Source of the DNA: Cyanidioschyzon merolae
Lineage: Eukaryota
Assembly: GCA_000091205.1 (NCBI GenBank)
Contig: AP006492.2
DNA: 64,000 nucleotides
Direction: 5' to 3' (one strand)
The notes under the pieces were generated by a model. The model was not told the DNA's origin. It saw nothing but the letters and a program-made list of their open reading frames with translations, and searched no databases. How positions within the stretch are numbered: the first letter of the stretch is position 1; each line of letters begins with the position of its first letter. The position numbers and the translations under genes are program-made. Of the stretch, positions 11,422 through 64,000 are shown piece by piece.

Positions 11422-12843
11422 TTGAAAGACGACAACCAGCACGCACACACAGCGCATGGCGCTGCAGCAGCGCTTCATTCATATCCTCTACAATTTGAGA
11501 GGATAGGGACACACTGTATCGCGACGCTCGCATCGGCACAGACGGTACGCGCACACACGCGCGTATCAAGCGGACACGCCCGCTTCGCTTGGCTTATGCC
11601 GCGCATGTGCAGCGAGTCGGGGGCATTGTTTCGCGCACCAACGGCTTTCGCGACGCCGTGTGCTCTGAATAGTGTTCAGCGCCCAAGTAGACAGCTTCGC
11701 TCGAAGGTAACTGACGACTCCAACTGGCCTCCTCAGAAGGCTTGGGTATCGGCGCACCGCTTGCCACGGTTCTCGTGGCGCAGGCGTTTCGAGCGACCCT
11801 TGGCAGGAACACAGAGTCCGCGTACACTCCATAATTCACTTGAATTGACAGCCTGCATGCACGGTGAGGCATCAGCGCCCGATCGGAAAGGTGCAACGAT
11901 GTCAGCGGTGGGTTTCATCGGCCTGGGCATCATGGGAAGCGGTATGGCGCGCAACCTGTTTCGGGCCGGTCACAGTCTCTACGTCTGGAATAGGACGCGG
12001 AGTGCGGCGGAAGCGTTTGCGAAAGAGCTTGTAAACGAGCAGTGCGGGGAAAGCAAGGGATATTCTTCTGGAAATGCGCAGGTGCACGTGGCGGACTCAC
12101 CGAGATCCGTTGCAGGTGCCTGCAACGTGATATACTCGATGCTGTCTACGCCGGAAGCCGCGCTTTCCGTTCATCTCGACGCTGAACGAGGGACGGTGCA
12201 GGAGCTCGGCCCCCAGAAGATGCTGATAGAATGTTCAACGCTAGATGTGAGTACCATGGAACGACTGAGCGAGGCGGTGCATCAACGAGGGGCACTCTTT
12301 TTGGAGGCGCCTGTTAGCGGCTCCAAAGTGCCAGCACAAACTGGAACCCTTATCTTTCTATGCAGCGGTGACCGGGCAGCCTACGATCGCGTTGCATCCA
12401 GCGGTCTCGATGTCATGGGCAAAGCTTCCTTCTTCCTCGGTGAGCGGTGCGGAGTGGGCACCAAGATGAAAATTGTGGTGAATATGATCATGGGTTCGAT
12501 GATGGTGGCACTCGCTGAGGGTGCTAGCCTCGCCGAGTCGTGCGGGCTCTCGACGGAGACCCTGAACGAGATCCTCGGACTTGGTGCCATGAACAGCCCG
12601 CTCTTTAGCATGAAGCTGCCAAACATGATTTCCAGCCAATACGAAGCGCATTTCCCTCTGAAGCACCAACAGAAAGACCTCCGATTTGCGATTTCCCTCG
12701 GTGACGAAATGGAGCAGTGGCTGCCGCTCTCAGCCATTGCGAACGAAGTCTTCAAAGCGGCACAAGCGAGTGGCTTTGGAGATTACGATTTCTCCGCGGT
12801 TGTCGAGGCTTTGCGGAACAAGAAACGACGCCCATCAAACTGA
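11422..12843 (+). CDS. NAD(P)-dependent beta-hydroxyacid dehydrogenase (3-hydroxyisobutyrate dehydrogenase / glyoxylate-succinic semialdehyde reductase family). The catalytic domain starts near 11893 (MSAVGFIGLG), and the upstream part of the ORF may be a targeting peptide or non-coding.
   Basis: Rossmann motif GFIGLGIMGSGMARNL, LEAPVSGSKVPAQTGTL, catalytic-lysine region GVGTKMKIVVNMIMGSMM, C-terminal 6PGDH-like helical domain. Confidence 0.8.
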   Translation: MKDDNQHAHTAHGAAAALHSYPLQFERIGTHCIATLASAQTVRAHTRVSSGHARFAWLMPRMCSESGALFRAPTAFATPCALNSVQRPSRQLRSKVTDDSNWPPQKAWVSAHRLPRFSWRRRFERPLAGTQSPRTLHNSLELTACMHGEASAPDRKGATMSAVGFIGLGIMGSGMARNLFRAGHSLYVWNRTRSAAEAFAKELVNEQCGESKGYSSGNAQVHVADSPRSVAGACNVIYSMLSTPEAALSVHLDAERGTVQELGPQKMLIECSTLDVSTMERLSEAVHQRGALFLEAPVSGSKVPAQTGTLIFLCSGDRAAYDRVASSGLDVMGKASFFLGERCGVGTKMKIVVNMIMGSMMVALAEGASLAESCGLSTETLNEILGLGAMNSPLFSMKLPNMISSQYEAHFPLKHQQKDLRFAISLGDEMEQWLPLSAIANEVFKAAQASGFGDYDFSAVVEALRNKKRRPSN

Positions 12844-17334: not shown

Positions 17335-19959
17335 ATGGACCCGCTCTGCAGCGAATGGAACGGGAATAATAGCATGGATTTTCTGAAAAACTTGACCAAG
17401 GAGCAGTCGGTTGTGGTCCGGGCGCCATTGGAGCGCTCTCTACTCATTGCTGCGAGCCCAGGAGCCGGCAAGACGCATACGCTCTTGAGTCGGTTGGCGT
17501 TTCTTCTCTTGAGCGGAAAGCTGGAACCTGGGGAATTTGTTTTCTTCACTTTCAGCCGTGCTGGAATCGAAGAGGCTAGGAGTCGCCTTGAGAAGCACGC
17601 AGCTATCGAACCGCTCGTTAGAAGTGCACGAACGACGTTTCAGCAGGCGTTCCAGACGCTGCACAGCTTCGGTAGGCGGCTCGTGGAAAGCACCGCGGCA
17701 CCCGTTCTCGAGCGTACCTGCCAACGGCGAACGTTCATGAACGTCATATCGCAAACGCAAAAGCGGGCGATACTGCGCGAGGCAATAGAGCGTTATCGCC
17801 AAAGGCTCCAGACGAACTGGGATCGACTTCCGTCCTGCACCCAGCCCCTGTTTCATCAACTTGAGCTCAGCGCACTGGAGAGCGACGATGCCGGCGCCGA
17901 AATGGCGAAAGGTGCCAAGTCATCGGACGACCGTCTGGTAAAAGAGATTTCCGTTCAAATCGCTGAACGCAAAGCGAGGTTCATCTCGCCACCGACATTG
18001 GAACAAGTCGATAGCGCTGCGTTCCAGTGGCCTCTGCTCGACTTTGTGTACGCCCTGTACGAGTGCTGGTTGCAGCATCTGAACTGCATCGATTTCGACG
18101 ATATGATCGTTATGGCTGTACGCATCCTGGAGACGCAAGCAAATCCGCCGCATCTATTCCCGCGAGGCCTGCGCCTCATCCTCATTGATGAATTTCAGGA
18201 CACGAGCGCGAGCCAGTTGCGTCTGGTGCGTGCGCTCGCCAAACGCTACGCTTGCACTGTCTGTGCTGCTGGCGACGACGACCAGTGCATCTACGAGTGG
18301 CGACAAGCCCGGCCTCAGTTTATGACAGAATTTACGCGCTTTTTCCCCGATGCAGCAGTCATGTTCCTGCGGGAGAGCATTCGCTGTCCCGTGAATATCG
18401 CCTGTTGCGCAAATGCGTTGATCCAGCACAATACGCGTCGGCTCTGCAAGAGCATTGAACCGCTACCCGGATACGAGCAACTGCGGGTACGGATTATTCT
18501 GGGGCGTTGCGTTGAAGATGAGGTTGCGTATCTTGGACAGGAGCTTGTAAGATTGCACACGGAAAACGGGGTTGCCTGGAAGGATATGGCAGTGTTATGC
18601 CGCGTTGCACAGCCACTGGAGACGCTCCGCAAGTTGCTCCGCGAGCGCGACATCCCCTATGCTGGTGCCGAGCAGTCCAAGACAGTAGCTCGTAATCCGC
18701 AAAATGAGTACGGCATTCGCATGCCCGCGAGCAACCTCGATCATGCCTGGCGAGAAACGCTCATTCTGGCCAGTCCTTTGGTTAGTATGATCACGCTTCT
18801 GGTGAACGAGTACGATTTGCATTCGCTCGATGACGCCTGCAAGGCCTATGCGCCTTCTATGCATGCGCTCACCAGGACGTGCGTAATCGATGAGGCTCGC
18901 AAGCGCCGCAACATGCCGTTGATGCGGGTTGTGCAGTACATGGTCGAGAACGCCCAGGAATTCTTCGAGGGCGTCCCTGATCGCAATACGATGCCCATCA
19001 ACGTATCGCAGAACGCCAAAGCGAACTTTGTGCAAGCATCTGTCGCGCCTGGCAGGCTCGCGCCGGGTTTCAAACGTGTGTCGGAACCTGCACCCGATGC
19101 ATATCGTCCAAAACTCAGTCAGGGTCAGTGGAAAGCGTGCCGCGTGCTTCTCGCGGCATACGAGCGGCTGCTCGTCATTGCACGGGATCTGGGTCCCGAA
19201 ATCCGACTCGAGCGCATGCTGGAGGTCGCTCTGGAATTGCTGCCTGCTTCCGCTCCACAACATGGATGGAGCATTACGAACGATACGCGTCGCCTTCTTC
19301 GGCATCTTGCTCATCATGTCGATGAAGAAGCCCGTACCCGATGGGAATGGGCTTCAGGAGCTGCAGCGCTCCCGTCTCCGTCTCCATCTGCTGGGCCTGA
19401 TGCCGGTATATCCAACAATTACGGGACGGACGAGGAGCAACGGTGTTCGTTGCAGCCTGCCGCCGACTCGAGCAGCAAGCTACTCTACGGTGCACTCGCA
19501 AGGCGAAGACGGTGCACGCCCTTGGCACGGAACGAGTTGGGCATTCGATCGAGTGCCAGTCATCACGAAAAGGACTCGTGGCGCAAGCCTCTGCGTCAGC
19601 TACTGCTCTGTCTGCAGGATGCATGGCAGGAAGGCACTCGTGCATTCGCCCATGCTCGTCGCAAAGTGCCGCTAGATGCAGTCGCTGTATCTACGATACA
19701 CAACGCCAAAGGCAGAGAGTGGCCTTTTGTATTCATTTTGCGTGCGGTCCAGGGATCGTGCCCGTTGCTCTACCCGGAAGTCGATCTGGAGGAAGAGCGA
19801 CGCGTGTTCTACGTCGGGTTGACGCGGGCCCGCCAACAGTGCACGATCCTCGCGAGCGAACCGCAGACAGGCAAGCAGCAAGATCCGCAGCAGCAGCCAT
19901 CTATATTCCTCGATGAGCTCTCTGCGCCTCACTGCGAGCGGATACAATGGCGTCCAGTT

Positions 19960-20088: not shown

Positions 20089-20343
20089 ACCGAACAGTTG
20101 CTTCCTCGAGCGGTGCACGCAGCACACCTAGCATTGCTGCGGCTGAAATGTACTCGTTCGACATCACCGAATATGCCATCAGAATGCATGCACTGTGTAG
20201 ACGCATCTTTTTGGGATCATGTGCGTATCTCGGGGATCGTGATTGCCACCCAGGGAACGCGTAGAGCAGCCCCAAATAGCTTCGGAAATCAACGAGCAAT
20301 GCAGATGCGCTCAAACCTGAATCCGGTCAGTGATGCGGAAAGA

Positions 20344-21735
20344 TCAAGCTCTCACCAAGTCCAAGAGAAATTGTGCCAGCGGAATCTTGGATTCCTCCGT
20401 GATCAGGTGTGCCCCGGTGAGCTCAATTGCAGGGATACCGAGCGCTTCTGCGAACGCTCGACACGCACGAGGTCGAGTAAGCGGATCATCACGGCCATAG
20501 AGGAGCATCGCTTTCTCTGGAATCCGCACGCGCAGTCGCTCCAAGTCCGCTCGCGTCAGTCGATAGACTTGAACTGCATGCAACTGGCCCAATGAACCAT
20601 ATGCGTTCAGCGGGTCAGCGTTTCTCCCTGAGGAATGCCGAACGTCGGCGATCTCATCCCAGGCTCTAAAACGCTCGAGTGATTCGGCAGTGTAGTTGAA
20701 GAGGTACCATTCGTGCCGGCGAATCGGGCGCGAGTACCGCTTCTTGGGCAAAGCGGATGCCGTCGCAGTCGCAGTTTCCGCACTGCGTCGAATGTGGTGC
20801 AACTCTCCAGCGCTTGGATCGGTCCGTGGAGCATGAAGCAGCGAGCGCTGCGCTGCAGGTTCAAGCGGACTCGCCAGAAACGCGTCACTGAAATGAAGAC
20901 TCAAATCGATAGCCGCACGCTGGGTCAGCAGCCTTAGGCGCTTACGTTCATTCTGCAGCGCCGTCGTGGAGATCGTTGCCGCTCGGATCCACCATAGCCA
21001 GTAGCGAACTGAGGCTCGCACTGCCCGTGCGCTTGGCGGAAACCAGTCCCGAAACCTTCCCTGATGCATGGACAAGAACATGATACCAGACACTTCGAGA
21101 GGCGGGCTTGTCAAAAGCAGATGGCACAAGATCGCGCTCCCGAGCGAGTGCCCTACCAGAAACAGTCGAATGGACGTATTTGCATGAGTCGAATCCAAGG
21201 CCTTCGTGGCTCCAAGCACCTGCTCGAGAACATAGCGCGCATCGTCTGCCAGCGCCTGAGCCGTCCATAACGAAAGGTTCGCTTTTCTCTCTCGAGCACG
21301 CACACAGCGACATATAGGTGCTGGTGGCGGGTACAACTCCGAACCACCAGTGCCGCGATTATCTATCAAGCAAACGAGAGTGCGCCCAACGGAAGTACGG
21401 TTCCCGTTACAGCGCTCAGAGAGCAGCTCGACAAGCGAGAGCCACATGGTATGCGACGCGCCCACGCCTGGCACGAAAGCTACCACACTAGTGGCCGGCG
21501 GTTTTCCGGAATCGACCGCACACTCCGACCAGTTACCGATTTTCACTATGCAAGCGGAGAGGCGGTACGGATCTGGCGGTACGCGCTCCTGGGGCAAACT
21601 CTGCAAACACGTGTCGTTCGAAGCGCCAGAAGCACAAGCTCCGCGTCCTATTTGCCGTCGATAAAATCGGACACAAGCCGGTCCTTGCAAATTATCTATC
21701 CATTTTCCGAGACGTTTCGCTTCCAAATATTCCAT
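20344..21735 (-). CDS. Alpha/beta-hydrolase fold protein (463 aa) with a large lid insertion
   Basis: Nucleophile elbow FLVGHSLGSAIL (G-H-S-L-G), N-terminal VAFVPGVGASHTMW oxyanion-hole region, C-terminal LLYGRDDPLT acid/His region. Confidence 0.7.
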   Translation of the reverse strand: MEYLEAKRLGKWIDNLQGPACVRFYRRQIGRGACASGASNDTCLQSLPQERVPPDPYRLSACIVKIGNWSECAVDSGKPPATSVVAFVPGVGASHTMWLSLVELLSERCNGNRTSVGRTLVCLIDNRGTGGSELYPPPAPICRCVRARERKANLSLWTAQALADDARYVLEQVLGATKALDSTHANTSIRLFLVGHSLGSAILCHLLLTSPPLEVSGIMFLSMHQGRFRDWFPPSARAVRASVRYWLWWIRAATISTTALQNERKRLRLLTQRAAIDLSLHFSDAFLASPLEPAAQRSLLHAPRTDPSAGELHHIRRSAETATATASALPKKRYSRPIRRHEWYLFNYTAESLERFRAWDEIADVRHSSGRNADPLNAYGSLGQLHAVQVYRLTRADLERLRVRIPEKAMLLYGRDDPLTRPRACRAFAEALGIPAIELTGAHLITEESKIPLAQFLLDLVRA

Positions 21736-24109: not shown

Positions 24110-25204
24110 GCTTATCAGGTTTCGGGTGTCTCTGTGGAGACTCGAAAGCCGGAAAGCCGAGAATCGGTGTGCTCCTCCTAAAAATGGCGAGTATCGATAG
24201 AGCGAGCGCTCGAGCGACTCGTGCTGGAGGCTCTGGCTCCTCCGATAGCGCGGGCGAGATGGATGCGACCCCTCCCGACACATCCATCTCGCCCGGTGTC
24301 ATGAGACAGCTTCGCTTTAGAGACGCGCTGCAGCGCAGCCAGGCCGGTACGTTTGATCGGTGACGGCTGCAGGACGGCCGCTGCACTGCGGTTCATGTTG
24401 TCGTGGCAGAAGCTCAAATGCGGAAGAGCGGCCTTGGGCTCCAGTTGCCTGGATCATTGGATTTGACGCGGTTTTATTCAGTGCATCGGGCATTCTGCCG
24501 TTCTGAGCACAAGCGCGAGCTCTCAGGACAGCAGAAGCGCATTGGATCCAAAAACTTGCGACCTTTTGGTCCAGCAGCACCCGAGGAAGAGTGAAGCGAC
24601 TTGTACGGGGTCGAAGCCACAATGACGGCTCCATGTCTGGAGGCAGCGTCCGCAGCATGTTACGTTTCACGGAAAAACGCGTGGAATTCGGAGGTCGTGG
24701 ACATGCGTATGTGCGCTGTCTAGCGTGCGTTTCTGAGGCACTCGCAAAGCCGTCACATGCGCTTCGAGCGTTCATTACGCGACAACACCCGCACTGCACG
24801 CGATACGGCGACACGATACCGTGCCAGTGCTGCGCGAAAGAGTACTAGCATCGCAACGAGCTCGTGGACGCTCATGCGGCGCCCAATCGCTGATCTGTTC
24901 TCGAAACCAGGCAGGCAGCTTTGTAGGTACCCTTGGAGAGGCACTTGGTATTCAAGACATTCGAATCGGTGTGGAGATTTCACGGGGCTGCTGCCTCCGT
25001 CCAGGATCTGGGCAAGGCTTTCGAAAAAGCACCACGCCGGGTTCCAAAATCAAACTTCAACGCTGACGCTCGTGAACATCCGGCATATTGGATACAAACG
25101 AGATCTGCGCGACATGACGTGCGTACACACCGATGCGCTGGTCGCTAACGCTCGTGAACATCGAGCACAGCGGATGCACACGAGACTTGCGTAGGATCAC
25201 GATC

Positions 25205-25205
<1 letters not shown>

Positions 25206-25239
<34 letters not shown>

Positions 25240-25253
25240 CACACACACACACC
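25206..25253. repeat. Compound microsatellite (CAGA)8(CA)6 in the Rho-GTPase / NhaD intergenic region
   Basis: cagacagacagacagacagacagacagacacacacacacac, read directly from the sequence. Confidence 0.95.
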
Positions 25254-32982: not shown

Positions 32983-33128
32983 AGCGCCGCCAGAGAGATT
33001 GCCTCGATGACGCAGATGCCGAGCGCGCTGGACGTTATCGCTGGACGATCAACGAAGCGCCGCCAGAGAGATTGCCTCGATGACGCAGATGCCGAGCGCG
33101 CTGGACGTTATCGCTGGACGATCAACGA
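32983..33128. repeat. Perfect 73-bp tandem duplication in the thioredoxin/fibrillin intergenic region, immediately upstream of the fibrillin start (33146)
   Basis: agcgccgccagagagattgcctcgatgacgcagatgccgagcgcgctggacgttatcgctggacgatcaacga occurs twice back to back (32983-33055 and 33056-33128). A shorter gcgtgctggt x2 lies at 32938-32957. Confidence 0.9.
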
Positions 33129-33145: not shown

Positions 33146-33808
33146 ATGGCTTTTGTTCCGAACTTGTGGGTCCATCGACGTTCTGCAAGGACCCGAGCGC
33201 CAAAGCGAGCTCTCTGTTTACGTGCATCTTCCGTTGAAGAGCGCCCAGCTGCGACGCCGACGCTGCTGCTGGCTTTGCTCGCGGGGAACCGGCTCGGTGC
33301 TTCGTACCGGGCGTCGCGTCGCATCGCAATTCAAAACATTGCTGGACTTTTGGAGTCTACAGCTCTAGAAAAGCGTGAAGGCATTCGTTTTCCTCGCGAC
33401 CTTGGACGTCTCGAAGGTGTTTGGCGACTGTGTTACACCTCCGGCCGTTTGCCAGTGGGTTGCGTCAACAGCTACCAGGTTATCCGCGGCGCTTCGCGAC
33501 AGCTTGCGAACATTGTCGACCTGGCGCTGCCTCTGGCACCGCCGCGGACGGTTTTTCGTCTGTGCATCGAACACACCTTCGACGTTGTGGGTGAACACCG
33601 CATCCGTCTGCGCCAGACTGCCGTGCGGACGGGGATCACCGGTGAGGACGCCGCACCTGACGTGCACTGGCTGCGCTTCCCGCCCGTGCCCATACCCGGC
33701 GTCATGGCCGAGCCCGTTGGATACCTCGATACCATCTACACGGATGAGGATGGTTTGCGAATCAGTCGCGGTGACGGTGGTGAACTTCGTATTTTTGTGA
33801 AGGTGTAG
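33146..33808 (+). CDS. PAP/fibrillin-domain (plastid lipid-associated) protein
   Basis: LLALLAGNRLGASYRASRRIAIQNIAGLLESTALEKREGIRFPRDLGRLEGVWRLCYTSG matches the fibrillin lipocalin-like core (G.W.L.YTS). The C-terminal YLDTIYTDEDGLRISRGDGGELRIFVKV is the typical fibrillin ending. Confidence 0.7.
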   Translation: MAFVPNLWVHRRSARTRAPKRALCLRASSVEERPAATPTLLLALLAGNRLGASYRASRRIAIQNIAGLLESTALEKREGIRFPRDLGRLEGVWRLCYTSGRLPVGCVNSYQVIRGASRQLANIVDLALPLAPPRTVFRLCIEHTFDVVGEHRIRLRQTAVRTGITGEDAAPDVHWLRFPPVPIPGVMAEPVGYLDTIYTDEDGLRISRGDGGELRIFVKV

Positions 33809-39920: not shown

Positions 39921-40640
39921 ATGCAATACGTATTGCGCTCACTGCAAGGAAACCTGAAAATGTTGGGTCAAGCAAGTGCAAAGCTGAACTTTGTCGTGCC
40001 GTTCACTGGCTCGTCTGTTGTGCTGCGGCGTCCGTTGATGACCCCAGTGGGCGGGCGCTCGCCGTATGCACCAGCGCTCGCTCGCAGTGTTGCGAAGCGT
40101 TCGCTGAGCAGCGCACGAACGAGCCTCATGCAAGCGAATGCGAACAGTCGCGAACGTGATAACGAGCGGACGCTGGTTCGCGGACGACGGGACTGGGGCT
40201 GGCCGTTCAGCATCATGCGCCGCGATCCCTTCTTCATGTCGCCGCTGATGGACTTGGATCGTTTCTGGTCGGACTTTGACGCGCTCGCGCAGCGCAGTAA
40301 TGCGTACTTGCCGGCCCTGGATATCACGGAAACGAATGATGCGTTTGTGGTTAGTTGCGAGCTCGCCGGAGTACCCAGAGAGAATGTCAAGATCGCCCTC
40401 GATGGTGATATTCTTACTGTTCAGGGCGAGAAGAAATGGGAGCACGAGGAGAAGGACGCCAAGATGCATCGCATGGAACGCTCGTATGGTTCCTTCTCGC
40501 GGAGTGTGCGGCTGCCTACGGACGTCGTAGACGCAGAAAATATCAAGGCGCAGCACAAGGACGGCGTCCTGCGTATCACGATTCCGAAGAAAGTGAAGCA
40601 ACAAGAAAACGTGAAGGAGATTCCGATTGAGGTGTCGTGA
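39921..40640 (+). CDS. Small heat-shock protein (alpha-crystallin/Hsp20 domain) with ~75-aa Arg/Ser-rich presequence (organelle-targeted type)
   Basis: PALDITETNDAFVVSCELAGVPRENVKIALDGDILTVQGEKK...GSFSRSVRLPTDVVDAENIKAQHKDGVLRITIPK. It is divergently oriented to the sHSP at 39042-39575. Confidence 0.85.
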   Translation: MQYVLRSLQGNLKMLGQASAKLNFVVPFTGSSVVLRRPLMTPVGGRSPYAPALARSVAKRSLSSARTSLMQANANSRERDNERTLVRGRRDWGWPFSIMRRDPFFMSPLMDLDRFWSDFDALAQRSNAYLPALDITETNDAFVVSCELAGVPRENVKIALDGDILTVQGEKKWEHEEKDAKMHRMERSYGSFSRSVRLPTDVVDAENIKAQHKDGVLRITIPKKVKQQENVKEIPIEVS

Positions 40641-44543: not shown

Positions 44544-45405
44544 CCAAGAACAGTATCCGCTGCTCCGAGCGGCGCTGGAGGTACCTCCCGCGTACGCCGG
44601 GCCGCTGCTGGCTGGCGCGCGTCCCCGAACGCTACCGCAGCGGGGCGTGATGCTGCTGCCTTCGTGCTGGCCGCTGCTGCAGCGCGGACGCTTGATTGAT
44701 GGAAATCCCGCGGCCGCTGCGTCGACGCAGCGCGGGACTCGATTCGTTCAGCGCTCGCGCGCGCTCGAAGCGCGCGAAGCGCCGATCCCGCCATTCGCTG
44801 GTACGGGGGCGTGAAGGCCTCGAAAGGCGTTTTGGAATAATATGGAAGAAACGGACACTAATGTGCACGCTGCACGGCTCCAAACTGGGTACGCAACATA
44901 GATCCGCCTGCGGGTGTCATTCAACGGTCAAAAGGGACAGGCATTGGTACCCGAGCGTGCGTGCGGACGCTGCGCCTCGGCGTACGCGGGAGGTACTTCC
45001 AGCGCCTGCTCTCGCGTGCCTGTGTCAGATGCATGGAGCGCACTGGCCTGCTCGCTACGCTCCTGCCTTGCGGCTTGTTTCCGAACTCGTTTTCGTTGTA
45101 TATTCTGGACATTCGAAGTACATCCAAGAGAGTGTGTGAATTCATCGGAGGGTAGGTTCGCGAATATTGGTCGTGTTTTGGGGACCAGGTCCGCAGATGC
45201 TGTGCAACCGCAAATCCGTACGGCAGCGAAATAAAGATGATTCGATGCGGCCGCGAACGAGGCGCGGTACACTTTCGTATTTGATGAACCGATGCAAATG
45301 CCCGAGACTGCAAGCTCCAGCTTTCCTTGCGTAGAGGATGCTCGAAATACGCATTCTTCACGCGTTCGATTTTGCTGTTTGAAAGCAACTCGTGGGCGTT
45401 GCTAT

Positions 45406-45930
45406 TTAGACTCCCGGATGGAGGAGCATGAGTAGTCGACGTTGGCGCACGACGACTTGTTCACAAGTTGATGCCGGATGCTCACTGAAGTTGTCATTTT
45501 CAATAATCGATTCCGTTGGAGAGAGAAATCCAACTTGATTTGAGGCCATCGATGAATCTGTATTCGACAGTAGCATGACATCTCTCATGGCATATGCCCC
45601 GAGAGGCTCCCGTCTCTTCTGTTTGCGACAAAAAGGGTATTGGAATCGGATGTGAGTTATCGTAGCGATCGCTTCCAGTGGAACGTGTGTTACTGCGTTG
45701 CCCGAATCGAGTGCAGACGGATCGAAGGTTCGCGAGGCCTTCTCAAGCGTCGATTTTGCTTCCGGCACTTGTTTCACCACGGATAGTATCGTGCTCCACA
45801 AATCCGTCACCGAATGGAACAGCATGGGCCCTTGCGCGTGCAGCAGACAAAGCCCTCGTCGACGGCATCGCCACGAAGAATCACCCGATCTGTGGGGCGT
45901 CGCCCCTGGTCCGGAAACGGAGGCGTGCAT
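45406..45930 (-). CDS. Member (diverged copy) of a small repeated ORF family also present at 56626-56862 and 62051-62380
   Basis: The C-terminal block LFHSVTDLWSTILSVVKQVPEAKSTLEKASRTFDPSAL aligns with LFRSIEYLWNAMLPIMKQVTDGKSRLENKSRNFEPSTL through conservative substitutions (I/V, M/I, D/E, T/A). The start region MHASVSGPGA shares the cgATGCACcCCTCCGTTTCCG context. Confidence 0.3.
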   Translation of the reverse strand: MHASVSGPGATPHRSGDSSWRCRRRGLCLLHAQGPMLFHSVTDLWSTILSVVKQVPEAKSTLEKASRTFDPSALDSGNAVTHVPLEAIATITHIRFQYPFCRKQKRREPLGAYAMRDVMLLSNTDSSMASNQVGFLSPTESIIENDNFSEHPASTCEQVVVRQRRLLMLLHPGV

Positions 45931-46553
45931 CGAGGCGAGCCTGCTGTGCCCGTCATGGATATGTACAGCGTGATAGGGAAAACGTTCATGTTTTACTGGG
46001 CGGTGCCCAAATGAAGAGATGTTTTGGACGCATGGGAGTCATCGACAGTGGTCAAGTGTCACTGCTGCGAAGCGTGCATCAAGGCTGTATACCTAAAAGA
46101 TGGAAATGGCTAGCGAAGCATAGATCGCTGCTCCCGCCTGTGCATGGAAATCGTAGACAGCAGCAGGTAGCCGCGACATATCGGGATGCGCACGCTACCG
46201 TCATCGTCCTCCGACTGCGAACACCGGAACTGGAGTGACGGGATAGACCTGTGTATTTAAGGCAAATCATGAGGGCAAGGAAGAGGAGGCAGTCGCAGAA
46301 ACAGCCCATAAATTCGGTTTTGATATTCATCGTACATGAGCAAAGCTTCAGCATGAGTGCACCCGAGTTCGAGAACCTGCTCTATGTTTTCTGACATGGG
46401 CGCATGGAATTGCTCGCTGTCTGCATGGTTTACTGGATGCGGTGCCCTGCGTTGTCATCGGTTTTGGCAGACACGACTCTTGAACAAGCGTGCGGACTGG
46501 ACGCGCTCCTTCCGAGGCGTTCCTGAACAAGTGAGCTTCACAGCTTTCATGAC

Positions 46554-54842: not shown

Positions 54843-56289
54843 CAACCTGACTGCGAGCTACTTGGCACTCGTATATGCTGGTAGAGATGCATTTGCAGGG
54901 ACCAATGCCGGCTTCAGATACCGGGGGAATCAGGTGCCTCCAGGCACGCTATAGCGCCCCCGGATGAACTCTGTCGATGCTTTGGATTGGACGTTTCCGG
55001 AAGCGGGACCCGCACCCCGGCCGAGCAGGCCATAGAGGTGACTCGCGTCTGCACACGGCGACAGGTAGCCTTGTATTGAGAAATGTAGTGTTTATCGGAA
55101 CAGGTCTACTGCCTCAAATGCTGCCAGTTTACTGGTATTGTTCTGGGCAGTTTCCTGGTGAAACAACCGCCAGGCATGACGTGAGCGGAGCGCCCATCGC
55201 TTCTGCTGGTAAACGCGTGACTTGGTTGATCGTAATGCCCGATGCGACGACAAGTGGTGGCTAGGCGAAGATTTCGGAAGCGACAGCAGCTCGCTCGCAA
55301 CTCGCCACGATATCGAGCCACGGACAACGCGGCGCCTGCTGGCAGCGCTTTGTGATACGCCAGATCATTCGCACTCGGAATGCGCTCGAAAAGTGCTGGC
55401 CTCACGGAACGATTCTTCCTGTGCACACGTGCATTTGCTTGATGCGACTCCGTTGCTGGAATGGCGGCTTGATGAGCGATTCCAAGGAAAACTGTGTATG
55501 TGACCGGAGGGCGCGCACGCTGGCAAACACGTCCCGGTGCCGTGAGAAGGGCAGCGAGCGCATGACATGAACGCCGCGGCTCTACACGGAACCTGTTAGG
55601 TGCTTCTGTCTGGTAGCTTGGAAATGTAGACGATGCTAAAGAGCGGCTCCACGTTGGCGTACGGCTGACTGCGATGTATCTCGATGAGGCGTTCCTGGTA
55701 GGGGTACTTTCAAGAATGGTGGTTTCTATCTCGATCATTGTACCCAGCGGTTCCCCGCTGTCGTATCGCTAAAGTCGATGCAGCTGTCGGAAGCCTCTCT
55801 GGGGTATTTACTTTCGAGAATAGCGGATTTCTAGGCGGGCAAAACTTCGTATTGCGAGATGGCTCTCCGAATGGCGCGGCTGCATGTAGTTCACCAGGGC
55901 ACCTCTGCGACACCGGGACCACACATCTCGCGGTTTATCTTCGAAGAGGCTCGGCGTTTCTAAATGCAGCATCTGCATCGCCGCAAGATGGGTCTCTCTT
56001 CCGCTGGCCACACGTGCCGCCTGGATATCCATGACAAGGATGCGATCTGCGTCTAGATCTGAGCCTTAGAGCGTTCGGCCTGCACGCGATCTTGGTCAGT
56101 GTCCTTCATGGCGCTGTTGTGTGCAACAGCGCTGCGGAAATGGACTCGTGCGAGACTAAAATGGAACAGGTCCTCTAAATCGGACATATACAATAAAGTT
56201 GGGGTTTTCTTCCCATTATGATGAATAACAGGTTTTGCGGGCTTGTTCAGTGACGAGTTCATCCCGTCGTCTCTATCTCTCGCTCTCAT

Positions 56290-56532
56290 TTATGGCTCTA
56301 AATACGCCTGGCCGTCCGGTACCTCTAGCTCCGCTGTCACCAGTCGTTGGATGTTGATGGCAGCGTCCAAGGCCCGTTTTCGCTGGTCCAGGACTTTTTC
56401 AACGTATTTCATGCACAAGTGGTTCTTGCGAGCTCCGCCTTGCTGTCCATTGTCATCTTCGTCGTATGCAGACTCAATGCGTCCTTCGCAGCGGTGACAC
56501 TCGACTATGGTCGATGATTCGCATGTGTCCAC
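56290..56532 (-). CDS. Small ORF (80 aa) in inverted-repeat arm 1; paralogous N-terminus to ORF 62375-62566
   Basis: IVECHRCEGRIESAYDEDDNGQQG versus VECHRCERRAESECKENDHGKRS in the other arm; sequences diverge after about 25 codons. Confidence 0.2.
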   Translation of the reverse strand: MDTCESSTIVECHRCEGRIESAYDEDDNGQQGGARKNHLCMKYVEKVLDQRKRALDAAINIQRLVTAELEVPDGQAYLEP

Positions 56533-56625
56533 CCGGGATCCTCGCTAGAGCGCCGTCCTGTTGCGCGTGAACGTTTTCTCCATCAACCTGTACGTGCCCG
56601 TGACGGACGTAGAGGACTCTGTTCG

Positions 56626-56862
56626 ATGCACCCCTCCGTTTCCGCGTCAGGAGCAGTACCCGGCGATCACGGGCTTCTCCTGGACGATGCCCTTAGCGAT
56701 TATTCTACCAGCTGCATACGCAAGCGCACGCTGTTCCGTTCCATAGAGTATTTGTGGAACGCAATGTTGCCCATCATGAAACAAGTAACGGACGGGAAAT
56801 CCCGGCTGGAGAACAAATCGAGAAACTTCGAGCCCTCTACGCTCCCTCCGCCCAAGCAGTAA
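56626..56862 (+). CDS. Small ORF (78 aa) in inverted-repeat arm 1; member of the repeated ORF family (copies at 62051-62380 and 45406-45930)
   Basis: About 93% nucleotide identity to the arm-2 copy. The substitutions between copies (D/G, A/T, D/E, R/H) keep the frame open. Confidence 0.3.
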   Translation: MHPSVSASGAVPGDHGLLLDDALSDYSTSCIRKRTLFRSIEYLWNAMLPIMKQVTDGKSRLENKSRNFEPSTLPPPKQ

Positions 56863-57808
56863 CGCGCTTTCCACTGGAAATGTTCGCCGCAATGACCAAA
56901 TTCCCAGCCCAGGACTCTTTTCCGAACAAGCAGAACAACCAACAGCCTCTGGGACTATATGACGTGAATTGCACTAAGCTGCTGGGGAACGCGCTTTCGT
57001 CGATATTCACAGAGAAACAAGCACCTGTATTTCGATAGGAGTTGATTCTCTCGCGTCGGAATATCAGTGTACTTTCGGTATCATCTTCTGAGCGATTTTT
57101 CCAGAATACATCGCGTTTTTCCTCGTCAATCAAGCGACGCGCATCGCTGGCTCTCTAAGCGTTGCCTTGAAACACGCAAGCACCGCAGTTGCTTCGACTC
57201 GTGTCCGTTTGCACGCTATCCACACATCAACTACTTTACCAATCCCTGTCCGATTGCGTCATAAATCGCCTTGATTTCAAGGACGTCACGAATTCCAGCA
57301 ACAAAGCGCCCGGTGATCCACTTTGTGACCTCGACCCTGAGTATGCCCAGCCTTTACGAGTGCATCCGTGTGTGCACTGTTTTCCGTACTTCGACGAACT
57401 ACGCTGCACGCCTAGGCAAACGTTGTAAACCAATCACAACACCGGAGTACAGTAAGCGGCCCAGTGTTCCACGAGAACCAGACACACACACACACACTGA
57501 GATCGACGCTCGACCACGGCAGCCGCAGGCACCCGCCCGTCGAGCAGTTCCGTTCAGAGGAGAGGAAAGCGCGCGCGTGATGTCCATTTTGGGATGCCAT
57601 CAACTGTGGCGCGCCAATCGTCTGTTGTTGCGGGTGCGCGAGTCCCAGCGCCGACGGCCTGCGCGCGCCCCCTCGGTGGTACATTGCGCGCAGGTCGCTG
57701 GACGGCGGCGACGCTGCCACCCGCGTACCGATCCTGAGCGATGCAGCGGCCGGTGCGCTGGGGCGCGGGCTGGTGCCGATAGCGTCCCCAGCGAGATAAA
57801 CAGGCGCA

Positions 57809-58861
57809 GTGCCCCGGAACCGAGGGACAAGTCCGCAGCAGACGAGAGAGAGCGCTCGTTGGTGCTCCTCAGAGCGCCATGGTATGAGTGGGCGGGTTCG
57901 AAGGCACAGCTTGGTGGTGGGCGAGCGCGGACCGGAGGGAATCGATGCAGCTACCAGCGCTTCTGAGGGCAACACATCTGCAACCTTGCACGGTTCGGCG
58001 GCAACCGAAGAGAACGACGCTTTAGCTCTAAAGTGCATTGAGGTGCTTCTTGCGCGCGAGCACCTGTTTACGTATCCTGCTGACTATGAGCCGCCTCTGG
58101 TAGACTCGGAGCAGTACCGTAGACGCTGTTTGCAGGTTCAGCGCTCGGTCAGTTTCGTGCGGCGTTTGCGCATTTCGGAGGAAGTGGCGGGCCTTTCGGT
58201 TGCATTCTACGACCGCATACATAGTGAGGTGCTCCCAGCAACTTTGGAAACCAGTATCACCGACGAGGTATGGGGAGCAGCGTCGCTTGCGCTCGCTTGC
58301 GAGGCCCGCGAGCTACCGGCCGCGCTCGTCGTTATTCTGCTCGCTGGCGACGATCGAGCGAAATCGCTTCGTATCTGGGAAGCAAAGCAGCGCCTACGAG
58401 CGCATCTAAACTGGCGTATTGAAATGGTCACGCCATACCAGTACATTCGAGCCATTCCGAGAGCTCCCACGCACGTGCGAATACTCGCGAGTGGTATCGT
58501 GACCCTAGCGTTGACGGATGTGCAGCTCATCAGACAGCTTCCGTCGCGCATTGCCGCAGCGGCTGTTGCAGTAGCTTTTATCATCTTCGACGAATTGCAT
58601 GAAGCGGTTGAGCGAAGCATGGAGGAGCAGCTGCGTGTGCATGCGCTCGAACGCTTCACGCCATTGAGGACGAGCCCGCGCTCGCCTGGCCAGCGCGAGA
58701 CGGTCGCCACGACGCCCGCCGGGTCGTGTCCCCTGATGAATCCCCAGACGCTTGACCTGGAGCTCATGCGTAGACTTTTGCGCATATTTTTCTTCAGTGA
58801 GGCTCCGGACATTGCGGGTGGAGTTTTCTCACTCAGTTCTTTGTCAGAGACCAGTACATGA
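57809..58861 (+). CDS. Cyclin-like protein (divergent cyclin box)
   Basis: LALKCIEVLLAREHLFTYPADYEP...YRRRCLQVQRSVSFVRRLRISEEVAGLSVAFYDRIHSEV...EVWGAASLALACEARELP follows the cyclin N-domain pattern (helix 1, YxDRF-like AFYDRI, AASLxLAxK-like GAASLALACE). Confidence 0.5.
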   Translation: MPRNRGTSPQQTRESARWCSSERHGMSGRVRRHSLVVGERGPEGIDAATSASEGNTSATLHGSAATEENDALALKCIEVLLAREHLFTYPADYEPPLVDSEQYRRRCLQVQRSVSFVRRLRISEEVAGLSVAFYDRIHSEVLPATLETSITDEVWGAASLALACEARELPAALVVILLAGDDRAKSLRIWEAKQRLRAHLNWRIEMVTPYQYIRAIPRAPTHVRILASGIVTLALTDVQLIRQLPSRIAAAAVAVAFIIFDELHEAVERSMEEQLRVHALERFTPLRTSPRSPGQRETVATTPAGSCPLMNPQTLDLELMRRLLRIFFFSEAPDIAGGVFSLSSLSETST

Positions 58862-59918
58862 ACCGCTGGTACTTGTCTGAGATCGTAGCTCGGGAAGGAT
58901 TCTCCATTGCCAACATGGCGAATAGCCATAAAAGTGCTCTAGGATGTTGTGGAAATCACGTAAGAAGCACCAGATTCCCGACTGATGCGCACATAGACGC
59001 GGAAGCGTACATGGGCTGTCTTGTCTGTCCCTCGAGCGGGAACCTTCGCCGCAGCGCCCTGCGGGATTCGTCGGTTGCGTCGCCTGGATGCGCAGCGAGA
59101 ACATGGCTCATGGGCGGGCGCGCTGCTCACATCAAAAGTAGAACGGTTTGAATGCAGGTGCATTTCATTGAAGCTGCAGCCGGATCGGCATTTCGGCAAC
59201 GGAGGACGCCAGGATCGAGTCCGCTGCGCACCAGCTCCAGCGGCTGCCGCACCCCTTGTTCACTGATGTGCATCACGCGGATTGCCTGCTACGGACTGTG
59301 CGCTTCGATACCCGAATTCGAGGTCATTTCATTCAGCGACAGACAGGAAGTTCGACCAGGTGACCCGGGATCGGCTTCGACCTTGAGCGATGGGCAGAGC
59401 TCGACTGCATTGCTGGCGCTGCGATGTCGTCGGCGGGTGCAAAGTCGGTCCTCGTGCCACTCGAGCTGAGCAGTCGGATCGTCGCAGGCGACGTCTGCGT
59501 CGAACGCCGCGAAACAAAAGCGACGGGTTCGTCTCCCCTGGGCAGTGCCAGGTTCCCGGTCCTCGAAGCGCTCTCAGAAGCGTCTGTGCGCGGACGATAT
59601 ACGCGGCGCACGGTCGTCGGCGGAGCGTATCATGCGCAGCGGTGACTGCGCTCACGCTTCAAGAGTGCTCCGGTTGCGAGCGCTCGAGCCCGTACCATGA
59701 ACACTTTAACGACAGACAGCGGCTTGGCACCGGTTGCGGTACGCAACGTCGGCAGCGGATGTCGAGCGTCCGACTCCAGTCGGTCAGGATTCGAATGCCA
59801 GCCGCCAACCCGTGAAACTGGCATCGCCCTTTCGCAAAGTCCAGGATTCACTTCACTGTTTTTACGATAGCGACGGAATATGGGCAAGAGAGTCGAATGG
59901 CGACAGAGCGCTCTACAT

Positions 59919-61373
59919 CTAGCCCGCTAGCGGTGGATAGGAGTGCTGAACAACGCCCAGCAATGCCTCGCCATTGTAGTGCAGAACGTTTTGACTGTAA
60001 GCGCATGGTGGGATGAAAATGATCCGACGCTCCTCGTCAAGCGCAAGACCAGCTCGATGTCGCTGTATCAGGTATTCGATAAAGTTCTGGTATCCGTCCC
60101 TATCCTCCTCGCGTTCCGGTTCGAAGTAGAACACTGCTGCATCAGGAAGCACGAACTCATTCAGATGGTTGAGGTTGAAACGCCGCTCGACGACGACGAC
60201 TGGCGGGATGCTCTCCTCGTCGGTGAGGGGTCCCCCGATTTGGTGCGCAACCAAGCGACACACGAATCGACCAGTCTTCTGGAGCCGGCACGTCCACTTG
60301 GGTACGTATCGCACAATCGGATACATGAAACGCCATCGACTGTCCTCGGAGACCAGGGGCTCTCGATTGGACGCCTGCGCTTCTTGGCTCAGGTGATAGT
60401 CCAACAAGAGTCGCCAAAGATATGCGTCGGTTTCGAGTGCTCGCCAATTCTCCAAGCACAGTTTTCGCCACAAATTTTCGTCCGAAGCAAATTTGCACCA
60501 TTTTTTGCATACGCCCCGCACGCGCCCTAGTTGAGGACCATTCATGTAGGTGAAGATTCGACGCAAAGTATCATCTGGTAGATCGGATATAGTCGTCGGT
60601 CTATTTCCGAGAACATACGACTTGGTCTCACGGGACGCCTTTTGGTACCTGCTCGACGCTGCCGCGCTTGACGACAGCGCGCTCAACGACAAGGGTGCGC
60701 GAACTAGGGTTACGCGCGCGGAGCCCCGCGAAGCCTCCTCGGCGCCGTCGGCTTCTGGCACTGCTGAACCACTCCCCAAGCCGCTGCTACCTTCCTCAAC
60801 CATAAAGTCTTCCGCGGCGTCCATGGCTTCGATTTCAAGGTGTGCAGCGGAGGCAGCGGCAGGTGAGAGCATCCCGTTGCCGGACGCGCTTCCCGCGCTT
60901 GCAAACCAAAGCGGCTCCCGCAGGTTGTTACCGCCCGTCCAGCTATCCTGCACGCTAGCGGCCTGCGTCTGTATCAAAAACGTTCTTAGAAAGTCGCGTA
61001 TGAAGGATGCTGAACCGTCCATGAGCGCAGGCTTCGTCTCTACGTAGAGGATCAACTGGCGGAGCACTTTGAGCAAGTAAGGAACCGAGTCGGGTCTTTC
61101 GAGGGCACTTTCCGCGCCCTCAAAAGCGTTCTGGTTACCCTCAATATCCCTTTCTTCTTTAGCACAAAGGCTGAGCGGCTTCTTCACAGAGTCCGTCACG
61201 CAAGCAGGTTTCATGCTTTCAAACAGGACTTGGTTCAAAGCGTGTTCGCGAACGTTCGCACACGAACGGTTACCTGCTGCCCTGGTACGCTGCAATCGCG
61301 TGCACGAGCGTCGCGGCCGCGAATTGCGTTCCGCAGGCAGGCGCCATCTCGAGGCGCAATCCTCGATCCACAA
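59919..61373 (-). CDS. F-box domain protein (484 aa)
   Basis: The F-box ISDLPDDTLRRIFTYMNGPQLGRVRGVCKKWCKFASDENLWRKLC sits in mid-protein. The N- and C-terminal regions have no recognisable fold by eye. Confidence 0.65.
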   Translation of the reverse strand: MWIEDCASRWRLPAERNSRPRRSCTRLQRTRAAGNRSCANVREHALNQVLFESMKPACVTDSVKKPLSLCAKEERDIEGNQNAFEGAESALERPDSVPYLLKVLRQLILYVETKPALMDGSASFIRDFLRTFLIQTQAASVQDSWTGGNNLREPLWFASAGSASGNGMLSPAAASAAHLEIEAMDAAEDFMVEEGSSGLGSGSAVPEADGAEEASRGSARVTLVRAPLSLSALSSSAAASSRYQKASRETKSYVLGNRPTTISDLPDDTLRRIFTYMNGPQLGRVRGVCKKWCKFASDENLWRKLCLENWRALETDAYLWRLLLDYHLSQEAQASNREPLVSEDSRWRFMYPIVRYVPKWTCRLQKTGRFVCRLVAHQIGGPLTDEESIPPVVVVERRFNLNHLNEFVLPDAAVFYFEPEREEDRDGYQNFIEYLIQRHRAGLALDEERRIIFIPPCAYSQNVLHYNGEALLGVVQHSYPPLAG

Positions 61374-62050
61374 GCGACATCCTGGGCAAGTAACGGTGAA
61401 CGAAAAACATGGATCTTTACATTCGATGCACGCTTTGGAGTCGTGATTAGAAGTAATACCTCGATAGTTGAAGTAGACGAATGGGGTGTTTAGGATTTGT
61501 AAGGAGGTTTAGGAATGTCGGTCGTCTATATGGAGTTGCCGCTTCGATTCCTTGCCGCTGCGTGTCGAGGCGTCATCGGATGCAAGATGATTTGCGACGA
61601 TTTTGGACAAGCGCTTACAAGACAAGTACCCGGATGATCCAGCTTCTATGTACGGCGCCTCCGTGCTTCCCTTGTTGCTCTTGGTGTCGCATGAGCGAAT
61701 CACGCTTTATTTGATGGATCGATCTTTCTCTTTTGACGCGAATCGAGGACGTAGCGCTTCGCGCCACAGGATTGAAGAGGGAAAACTCCGTGTCTTTTGG
61801 ACGACATGATCATAAACTCGTGCCGAAAGTTCACTGAATGTTTCATGTGGACGAAGAAACGATTGCGTGCGAAAAGCATGTGGCTCTCTCTTTGCTGGCG
61901 TCGACAAAACGGCAATTCCTTGAGCAGAATCGTGGAATTCACGGGACAGGCCCCTCTCCGAATACCGTCTCATCTGTTGCATGGAAAACGGCCTTGGACT
62001 CGGAATTCAGTGACCAAAATGATCGCTTCTGGTAGAGCGTGCGTTACCGC

Positions 62051-62380
62051 TTAGGGGAAAGGGAGTATAGAGGGACCGAAATTTCTCGACTTGGTCTCCG
62101 TACTGGATTTCCCGTCCGTTACTTGTTTCATGATGGGCAACATTGCGTTCCACAAGTACTCTATGGAATGGAACAGCGTGCGCTTGCGTATACAGCTGGT
62201 AGAATACTCGCTAAGGGTATCGCCCAGCAGAAGCCCGTGATCGCCGGGTACTGCTCCTGACGCGGAAACGGAGGGGTGCATCGAACAGAGTCCTCTACGT
62301 CCGTCACGGGCACGTACAGGTTGATGGAGAAAACGTTCACGCGCAACAGGACGGCGCTCTAGCGAGGATCTCGGGTGCAC
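62051..62380 (-). CDS. Small ORF in inverted-repeat arm 2 (paralog of 56626-56862)
   Basis: ...MHPSVSASGAVPGDHGLLLGDTLSEYSTSCIRKRTLFHSIEYLWNAMLPIMKQVTDGKS..., the same frame as the arm-1 copy. Confidence 0.3.
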   Translation of the reverse strand: MHPRSSLERRPVARERFLHQPVRARDGRRGLCSMHPSVSASGAVPGDHGLLLGDTLSEYSTSCIRKRTLFHSIEYLWNAMLPIMKQVTDGKSSTETKSRNFGPSILPFP

Positions 62381-62566
62381 GTGTGGAAATCAGTGACCAA
62401 CGTCGAGTGTCACCGTTGCGAAAGACGCGCAGAGTCTGAATGCAAAGAAAATGACCACGGCAAGCGAAGCATCGATTGCAACTTCGATCTGTGTTTAGAT
62501 GGCGTAGAAAACGGCCGGGAGCGGGGCAACCCGGAAATCAACGCTGTCATCAACATCCTTCAATAA
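62375..62566 (+). CDS. Small ORF (63 aa) in inverted-repeat arm 2; paralogous N-terminus to 56290-56532
   Basis: Shared VECHRCE-R-ES block; weak evidence of coding. Confidence 0.15.
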   Translation: MHVWKSVTNVECHRCERRAESECKENDHGKRSIDCNFDLCLDGVENGRERGNPEINAVINILQ

Positions 62567-62722
62567 CGGACAACGGTACTGGAGCGACACGAGAGACCAG
62601 CGCTTTCAAAGCCTGGGACGAGGAAGCTGTCCCAGGAAACGCCCTCAAGGGCCACGATTGCTAACACTGACTCAAACTTTGGCTTGTACGCGCGTGTTCG
62701 CAGCGTGCACCCAATCCATTTT

Positions 62723-63355
62723 TAGCATTCAACGAGCGTATCGTACACCAGGAAGGGTATGCATGGGTTTATTTTTTTTCATAACGGCCGTATCTATCAC
62801 ACTGACCGTGACCGTCGCCGGGAAAATGTGTTCTGAGCTCGATTCCTTTCGGTAACGTAGGCATCATCGGCAATTCGGAATTAGCATTCAACGAGCGTAT
62901 CATACACCAGGAAGGGTATGCATGGGTTCATTTTTGTCAGAACGGCCGTATCTATCACACTGACCGTGACCGTCGCCGGGAAAATGCGTTCTGAGCTCGA
63001 TTCCTTTCGGTAACGTAGGCATCATCGGCAATTCGGAATTAGCATTCAACGAGCGTATCATACACCAGGAAGGGTATGCATGGGTTCATTTTTGTCAGAA
63101 CGGCCGTATCTATCACACTGACCGTGACCGTCGCCGGGAAAATGCGTTCTGAGCTCGATTCCTTTCGGTAACGTAGGCATCATCGGCCATTCGGAATTAG
63201 CATTCAACGAGCGTATCGTACACCAGGAAGGGTATGCATGGGTTCATTTTTTTCAGAACGGCCGTATCTATCACATTGACCGTGACCGTCGCCGGGAAAA
63301 TGCGTTCTGGGCTCGAGTGCATTGGGTAACGTACGCACCATTGGCAATTCGGAAC
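62723..63355. repeat. Tandem array of four copies of a 158-bp unit (minisatellite/satellite-like)
   Basis: The unit starting ttagcattcaacgagcgtatcatacaccaggaagggtatgcatgggttcatttttgtcagaacggccgtatctatcacactgaccgtgaccgtcgccgggaaaatgcgttctgagctcgattcctttcggtaacgtaggcatcatcggcaattcggaa recurs at 62723, 62881, 63039 and 63197 with a few substitutions. The last copy degenerates near 63300. Confidence 0.9.
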
Positions 63356-64000
63356 GCTCAGCTGAGAGATCCTTTCGTGAAGCACAAATACACCGTATTC
63401 CCGGGGATGCGTTTGCCCTGCAGGACGAGCGGATATGTGCTTACTTCAGAAAAACCGGCGGTGTGGCTTCCGCAGTGTGTGCGCGTGTGTGGCTGCAGCT
63501 CTTACGACAGCCGAACGGAAGCACGGCGCGCGCTCCCGTGTGCAGGCGCGAATCAAGCCCAGTGCACATAGCTCAGACGCAGGTACTTGTCAGTATGGCC
63601 CTGGGCTCAAGGTCACTGTTTAGCAGAGGTCACGGCAGCTTACGCAACGGACGCCAGCTTTGGCGAGTGCGCCGGGCACCAACCATTGCTCTACATCCAA
63701 GTGCGTATACTCTGTTCTATGGAATAGTGGACGACAATGATCGTTCACCATTTACGCAGTAGAGGCTTTCGCTGTGCGTATATGGGGCACGCTGGACTTG
63801 CTGGATCGCTGAACCGTACCCATACCAGTGCCGTGGTCCATGCGAGAATCCCCTGCCCTGTGACTTTACCACAGATTTTTTTCATCGAAAGTCGCTAGCG
63901 TTTCAGCACAGTGCATGTACCGAGTCCTCAACGAGGATCTCGAACGTTCGCTCGATACAAAGCCGTTCGACGCCCCGCATGCACGAGATATCTCCATATG

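Follow-up and report, generated by a model that had tools for sequence, protein, structure and literature searches.

A four-unit 158-bp tandem array on chromosome 10 of Cyanidioschyzon merolae as a probable young, locus-specific minisatellite

The tandem array described in this work lies in an intergenic region of chromosome 10 of the red alga Cyanidioschyzon merolae and consists of four head-to-tail units of about 158 bp. The array is real and confined to a single locus, the number of its copies is not the same in all assemblies, some of its units are chimeric, and it carries no coding, RNA, or constraint signal. We consider it likely that it is a young, locus-specific, non-coding minisatellite, which would have originated by tandem duplication and would have been kept variable by slippage or unequal recombination. 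The coordinates given below refer to the window, i.e., the whole 64-kb stretch of DNA that was analysed, unless another contig is named.

Structure of the array and of the surrounding region

Tandem Repeats Finder placed the array at positions 62722–63354 (633 bp in total, 4 units), scoring it 1138 and reporting 4.0 copies at a period of 158 bp, with 96% matches and 0% indels; no other array in the 64-kb window combines a unit longer than 10 bp with more than 2.5 copies. The preliminary description had recognised a tandem repeat lacking spacers and not resembling a CRISPR, and this was confirmed both by Tandem Repeats Finder and by the spacings of the units, the genome being in addition a eukaryotic one. 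The position assigned to the array was also sound, except that its start falls at 62722 rather than at 62723. As regards the period, which had been given as exactly 158 bp throughout, the value holds for units 2–4 and fails for unit 1, the unit-to-unit spacings being 159, 158, and 158 bp. Indeed, unit 1 (62722–62880) is 159 bp long, with an extra T in its T-run, and shares 96.2% identity with unit 2 (62881–63038, 158 bp), which served as the reference copy for the comparisons. Unit 3 (63039–63196, 158 bp) departs from unit 2 by a single change, from A to C, near its 3′ end, and unit 4 (63197–63354, 158 bp) is 93% identical to unit 2; no strand is assigned to any of the units. When unit 2 was used as a BLAST query against the window, the four copies were retrieved with identities of 100, 99.4, 96.2, and 93.0%, a level of matching that is far above chance, and no other match was found in the 64 kb at E < 1.

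The outer units are the most diverged of the array, and units 2 and 3 are near-identical. Since unit 4 differs by 7% from unit 2 and by 8% from unit 1, the earlier figure of less than 5% differences between copies is correct with respect to the consensus and does not extend to every pair of units. Eight of the differences of unit 4 are clustered in its last ~45 bp, and the sequence of this tail points to unit 4 as an old edge unit of the array. No fifth, degenerate partial unit, of the kind reported previously, is present; the two flanking stretches of 170 bp aligned to the units with scores of 7–8, versus 8.4 ± 1.3 for the shuffled null, so that the array comprises exactly four units, and what had been taken as the degenerate portion is the 3′ tail of unit 4. 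The literature that was searched contains no mention of a 158-bp repeat in C. merolae.

The exact protein matches of its ORFs identify the window as a part of chromosome 10 (839,707 bp) of C. merolae strain 10D, the matching 10D proteins being BAM80226, CMJ090C, BAM80233, BAM80236, BAM80241, CMJ085C, and BAM80243. The Pfam domains of the long ORFs are of eukaryotic or plastid-lineage type (beta-amylase, RETICULATA-like, AP-complex mu subunit, F-box/SPOC, FTHFS, and ProRS), and this content, together with the exact C. merolae protein matches, ruled out a viral or prokaryotic nature of the window. The genes of the window correspond approximately to the 66th to 87th proteins of the chromosome; judging from gene order and mean gene spacing, the array is probably located ~280 kb from the chromosome end, and its locus would thus be interstitial and not subtelomeric.

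The gene nearest to the array is an F-box/SPOC gene (59919–61214, minus strand; BAM80243.1, 431 aa), and the array is located 1.5–2.1 kb upstream of its start codon. On the opposite side, an environmental contig (L018) that reaches 5 kb past the right end of the window contains ~2.4 kb devoid of any credible gene, followed by RPL10/uL16, RPL15e, and MBF1. Hence, the array is surrounded by a gene-free interval of ~5 kb, bordered by the F-box/SPOC gene on one side and by ribosomal protein genes on the other. The inverted repeat that had been noticed near the array is genuine: its two arms (56294–56847 and 62060–62613; 554 nt, 81% complementary) bracket the F-box/SPOC gene and a cyclin-like gene (57884–58861, plus strand), and the array does lie just outside arm 2, beginning 109 bp beyond it. 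The idea that the array itself is a part of the inverted repeat was rejected, since the homology of the arms ends before these 109 bp and the region beyond arm 1 is unlike the unit.

Two other loci of the window can be mentioned here. Just beyond arm 1 lies an ORF of 210 aa starting with ATG (55106–55738, minus strand), which is predicted as a gene in many metagenome contigs; its sources are JGI/IMG and Logan only, with no NCBI accession, the C. merolae annotation appears to omit it, it has no Pfam match, and it probably does not represent a gene. The window also contains a gene for a small heat-shock protein of the hsp20 family (39921–40640, plus strand; BAM80236), which has no relation to the array; a 2026 thermomemory preprint deals with a small heat-shock protein gene locus of C. 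merolae, which may or may not be this one.

Distribution, copy number, and history of the units

The occurrence of the unit at other loci was explored with an exact 23-mer that is invariant in all the units observed, a probe that diverged copies would escape. In the JGI metagenome contigs it was found in four contigs only, all four collinear with the array locus, and it was found in no viral contig. A second, unit-derived 21-mer was absent from 185,579 prokaryotic genomes, and the array gave no match to phage records. On the basis of the exact 23-mer scan of environmental metagenome contigs, the unit can be regarded as restricted to a single locus; a foreign origin of the array was rejected, phage records, viral contigs, and prokaryotic genomes all lacking a match.

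The set of contigs used for the analysis of copy number included the four recovered by the 23-mer scan and others that were retrieved by exact matching of the F-box protein or of the protein of a neighbouring ORF. The array is carried by 13 environmental Cyanidioschyzon contigs, always between one and the same pair of left and right boundary sequences, and the identity of these contigs to the window is 97.4–100% in the non-coding segments and 95.6–100% in the end units. Ten contigs span the array on both sides, and two units were counted in eight of them (L001, L002, L006, L008, L015, L017, L018, and L021) and three in the remaining two (L004 and L016), the reference strain 10D having four; the comparison contigs are short-read metagenome assemblies, prone to collapse near-identical inner units, and these copy numbers are therefore lower bounds. 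Another contig (L003) has three units and stops 18 bp past the array, and L005 stops inside it. Copy-number variation between strains, which the preliminary description had held to be informative, was thus checked in short-read contigs, and the assemblies display two, three, or four copies. From these sequences, copy number appears to vary from two to four between natural populations.

The three-copy array of L016 is exactly what would remain of the reference array if one of its two near-identical inner units were removed, and it may represent a collapsed four-copy array. In L021, the first unit is chimeric, the head of reference unit 1 being joined to the tail of unit 3, and in L002 it is the last unit that is chimeric, with a head of the unit-1 type and the tail of unit 4. 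The junction of the L021 chimera falls within a shared stretch of 46 nt and the assembly was obtained with k = 141; the collapse of a 10D-like array cannot, therefore, explain the structure of L021, which argues that this allele is real. Moreover, in every environmental contig the last unit ends with the same divergent tail as unit 4, and the sharing of this tail by all haplotypes implies that the array is older than the split of these populations.

The comparison was extended to two sister lineages within the Cyanidiales, namely L019 (NCBI GCA_041825655.1), whose F-box orthologue is 75% identical, and L020, which groups with Cyanidiococcus yangmingshanensis and has an F-box orthologue of 69% identity. 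Gene order with respect to both lineages is kept on the cyclin/PAC2/Tic22/RETICULATA side of the F-box gene. A break in synteny is located in the intergenic region of the array, i.e., ~61400–64000 in the window versus 8900–10000 in L019 and 2026–3230 in L020, and on the array side of the F-box gene C. merolae has ribosomal protein genes and L019 a sulfite/nitrite reductase gene 1.1 kb away. Neither the unit nor the arms of the inverted repeat were detectable at the F-box locus of L019 and L020, where only coding DNA aligns.

According to the scenario that we favour, an intergenic segment of ~158 bp on chromosome 10 would have been duplicated in tandem, and the resulting array would have expanded and contracted by replication slippage and/or by unequal (sister-chromatid) exchange between misaligned units. 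The inner units would have been homogenised in the course of the same process, and the outermost sequence, that is, the tail of unit 4, would have remained diverged. Diverged edge units are, indeed, typical of tandem arrays, and chimeric units such as those of L021 and L002 are the product expected of unequal exchange or slippage between misaligned units. Both the mechanism, be it slippage or unequal exchange, and the neutrality of the array are what we infer from its organization and variation.

Other tandem duplications were observed in the window and in one of the sister genomes. At 32983–33128, a 73-bp sequence is present in two tandem copies, 100% identical, 18 bp upstream of an ORF (33146–33808), and this duplication is very young. 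At 25061–25251, two direct repeats of 69 nt (extending to 25211) lie immediately next to an (AGAC)11 microsatellite; they are spaced 82 bp from each other and share 72% identity. In L019, the annotated start of the RETICULATA-like gene (18225–19757) falls within a perfect tandem duplication (122 bp × 2.1; 18028–18279 of that sequence), and a second tandem duplication (66 bp × 2) is found at 20254–20385. The existence, nearby or in a sister genome, of duplications with units of 73, 82, 122, and 66 bp suggests that the process is commonplace in these genomes and that a length of 158 bp, which had been singled out at first, has no special standing among these other young duplications.

Alternative explanations and the search for a function

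A different explanation starts from the sequences that flank the array. According to it, the array would be a tandem-repeat region inside a mobile or dispersed element, possibly the 3.2-kb repeat present in 253 copies in C. merolae, and its origin would be tied to the biology of that element; in our opinion this is unlikely, even though the flanks do belong to dispersed segments. The left one is a copy of seg1, a dispersed non-coding repeat family of ~0.6–0.9 kb with four copies, 58–82% identical, in the 64-kb window. These copies, recognised by nucleotide similarity, are located at 7879–8472 and 45338–46263 (both on the plus strand), at 57148–56294 (minus strand, containing arm 1), and at 61691–62613 (plus strand, containing arm 2), the last one being the left flank of the array. 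Judging from their similarity, the arms of the inverted repeat noted at the outset are simply the two most similar seg1 copies. The seg1 copies are equally similar in all six frames and are separated by frame-breaking indels, which indicates that their homology is at the nucleotide level and not at the protein level. The right flank, seg2, extends on the plus strand from 63620 to 64000 (and to ~64770 in L018) and is homologous to the region 9580–10770 of the window. The array is therefore placed between seg1 and seg2, and a seg1…seg2 composite of ~2.9 kb with a centre of ~1 kb occurs twice, at 7879–10770 and at 61691–~64770, with order, orientation, and spacing alike. It has been reported that a 3.2-kb interspersed element, which is transcribed and has a truncated, WSV486-like ORF weakly similar to WSV486 of WSSV, is present in 253 copies in C. 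merolae (Nozaki 2007, PMC1955436), and this element is a candidate that may account for the identity of seg1/seg2.

However, the centres of the two composites are unrelated, the array being found in one of them and CMJ085C (8903–9529; DUF498, NDUFAF3-like), a bona fide gene, in the other. In addition, nothing homologous to the unit is present at the centres of the window's other three copies (z from −1.1 to +1.4 versus shuffles). The lack of a homologue in these centres, along with the presence of CMJ085C in one of them, indicates that the duplication is private to the seg1…seg2 copy that carries the array. A protein-level search with a seg1 ORF recovered only the two local arms and no wider family, so that membership of the 253-copy family is unproven. 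A derivation of the array from a decayed CMJ085C was also considered and rejected (tblastn best E = 0.9, no match). In any case, an explanation based on a dispersed element is about the context of the array, and it is compatible with the array being a minisatellite.

A more speculative extension of these observations, to which we attach very little weight, is that seg1…seg2 might be a cassette-like dispersed element with an exchangeable centre of ~1 kb, and that the array might mark a site at which sequences have been replaced repeatedly within a red-algal element not yet characterised. An exchangeable cassette would likewise be in keeping with the synteny lost, relative to the sister species, in the intergenic region of the array.

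As for the units themselves, each of them might be a small non-coding RNA gene, e.g., for a snoRNA specific to the lineage or for a Pol III transcript that terminates at the T-run, in which case the array would represent a tandem cluster of such genes. This possibility is brought to mind by the unusual tRNA gene structures that C. merolae is known to possess and by several short motifs: a T5–T8 run on the plus strand of each unit and, on the minus strand, a box C-like motif (ATGATGC) and a box D (CTGA) ~90 nt apart, as well as a B-box-like GCTCGATTCC, the minus-strand motifs having been picked out by eye and with no statistics. Short matches of this kind are, however, expected by chance, and the T-run varies freely among units and haplotypes both in its length and in the adjoining bases. 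The Rfam scan of the region 55000–64000 at E ≤ 10 gave nothing on the array, and ARAGORN predicted 0 tRNA genes in it. RNA structure was judged on folding energy, the sequence variation being too shallow for covariation; the folding energy of the unit equals that of shuffles in all eight registers and on both strands (16 combinations, z from −0.3 to +0.7) and is the same as that of the neighbouring intergenic DNA. Readings of the unit as a 5S rRNA, a tRNA, a permuted tRNA, or a snoRNA were rejected on account of the missing Rfam or ARAGORN match and of the missing fold signal. Considering also that the units are conserved no better than the non-coding flanks, that their number goes down to two, and that the unit is undetectable in the sister taxa, a cluster of RNA genes seems to us very improbable.

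A coding repeat or a micropeptide was rejected too. The length of 158 bp is not a multiple of three and stops occur in every frame of each unit; the ORFs of the minus strand are only 44–53 aa long per unit, and their start codon is not conserved, the ATG requiring a base that is found only in units 2 and 3 of 10D and in one contig. Pfam gave nothing above its cut-offs on the local ORFs, and a match to Tachystatin_A (19.3 bits versus a cut-off of 25, in a peptide with a single cysteine) was dismissed as due to chance. As far as constraint is concerned, the identity of the populations to the reference is 97.6–99.1% in the end units, 97.8–99.3% in the non-coding flanks, and 99.8% in the F-box coding sequence; no extra constraint on the units relative to the non-coding flanks is seen in this comparison, which has low power, the populations differing by only 1–2%. 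Overall, these sequence analyses suggest that the array has no detectable sequence-specific function.

The length of the unit is also what suggests a role in chromatin. The array might be a satellite of the centromere of chromosome 10, or a specialised chromatin domain, each unit phasing one (CENH3) nucleosome, and nucleosome-sized monomers are well known in centromeric satellites, such as the human alpha satellite (171 bp) and the Arabidopsis 178-bp repeat. The base composition and the unusually long gene-free interval (~5 kb) would be in agreement with this idea. Indeed, the array, with a GC content of 0.49, is the lowest 500-bp stretch at its end of the window, and among the 2-kb stretches of the window, whose overall GC content is 0.566, 61401–63400 ranks second from the bottom, with 0.507. 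Nevertheless, a comparable low-GC stretch at 9501–11500 (GC 0.501) is without any array, and the GC content of the gene-free interval as a whole is ~52–55%, its remainder outside the low-GC stretch ranging from 0.52 to 0.62. The centromeres of C. merolae, as they are summarised in 10.1101/096016 (citing Kanesaki 2015 and Maruyama 2008), consist of one region of 2–3 kb per chromosome, with a mean GC content of 48.4% and “no other apparent pattern”; CENH3 ChIP-chip work in this species is mentioned in PMC3744952. The array has only four units (633 bp), apparently two or three in wild relatives, the unit is confined to a single locus, and it is absent from the sister species. Furthermore, there is no ~10-bp WW periodicity above the controls: the power of the unit is 0.95 versus a shuffle mean of 0.58 ± 0.33, a level that is reached by 14% of the shuffles and by 24% of the neighbouring intergenic windows. 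The significance that had been attributed to a nucleosome-length unit is therefore not borne out, and neither is the reading of the array as a subtelomeric or centromere-proximal, satellite-like sequence, given the single locus of the unit, its interstitial position, and the published centromeres devoid of a repeat pattern. A centromeric or specialised chromatin role is, in our view, extremely unlikely.

Finally, that the array might consist of repeated regulatory sites (an enhancer, a promoter, or a boundary) for the F-box/SPOC gene 1.5 kb away or for a neighbour is hardly credible at all, because, although it is located upstream of the F-box gene and its units, inspected by eye, contain short palindromes and hexamers repeated in direct orientation (GACCGTGACCGT, AATTCGGAATT, and ATGCAT), these motifs do not exceed the chance level, the array is conserved no better than its flanks, its copy number varies twofold among close relatives with an identical F-box protein, and the sister species retain the F-box gene without any array.

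Significance and comparison with known systems

The array is of little consequence for biology at large. However limited its general interest, a length polymorphism of two to four copies can be sized by PCR and could be used to separate 10D from closely related hot-spring populations, and it could help to detect mitotic or meiotic unequal exchange in a lineage of little-known sexuality. The seg1…seg2 composites, with their non-homologous centres, and the synteny breakpoint are more intriguing than the array itself.

Three kinds of known sequences invite a comparison. The first is represented by the centromeric satellites, such as the alpha satellite and the Arabidopsis 178-bp repeat, which resemble the array in having head-to-tail monomers of approximately one nucleosome repeat; they differ from it in that they reach thousands of copies, are common to several chromosomes, and are bound by CENH3, whereas here four copies are found at one locus. 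The second is the 3.2-kb element of C. merolae: the segments flanking the array recur in the window, and the seg1…seg2 composite, with its ~2.9 kb, is close to 3.2 kb in length, but the 158-bp unit is not found in the other copies, and no WSV486-like ORF was identified here.

The third, and the one to which the preferred interpretation as a minisatellite refers, is that of minisatellite or VNTR loci. These are, like the array, made up of head-to-tail units (about 10–200 bp), non-coding, located at a single locus, and variable in copy number, and they likewise show variant units arranged in mosaics, with the edge units as the most diverged ones. The differences are that the copies are here very few (2–4), that the unit is among the longest in the usual range, that the variation was observed in short-read assemblies, and that the host genome is almost repeat-free. 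The impression of a repeat-poor genome conveyed by the preliminary description is, on this last point, in agreement with the published transposon content of C. merolae, which is 0.7% (PMC1955436). The array is, in conclusion, a further example of a type of sequence that is well known, and its sole unusual aspect is the repeat-poor genome in which it resides.
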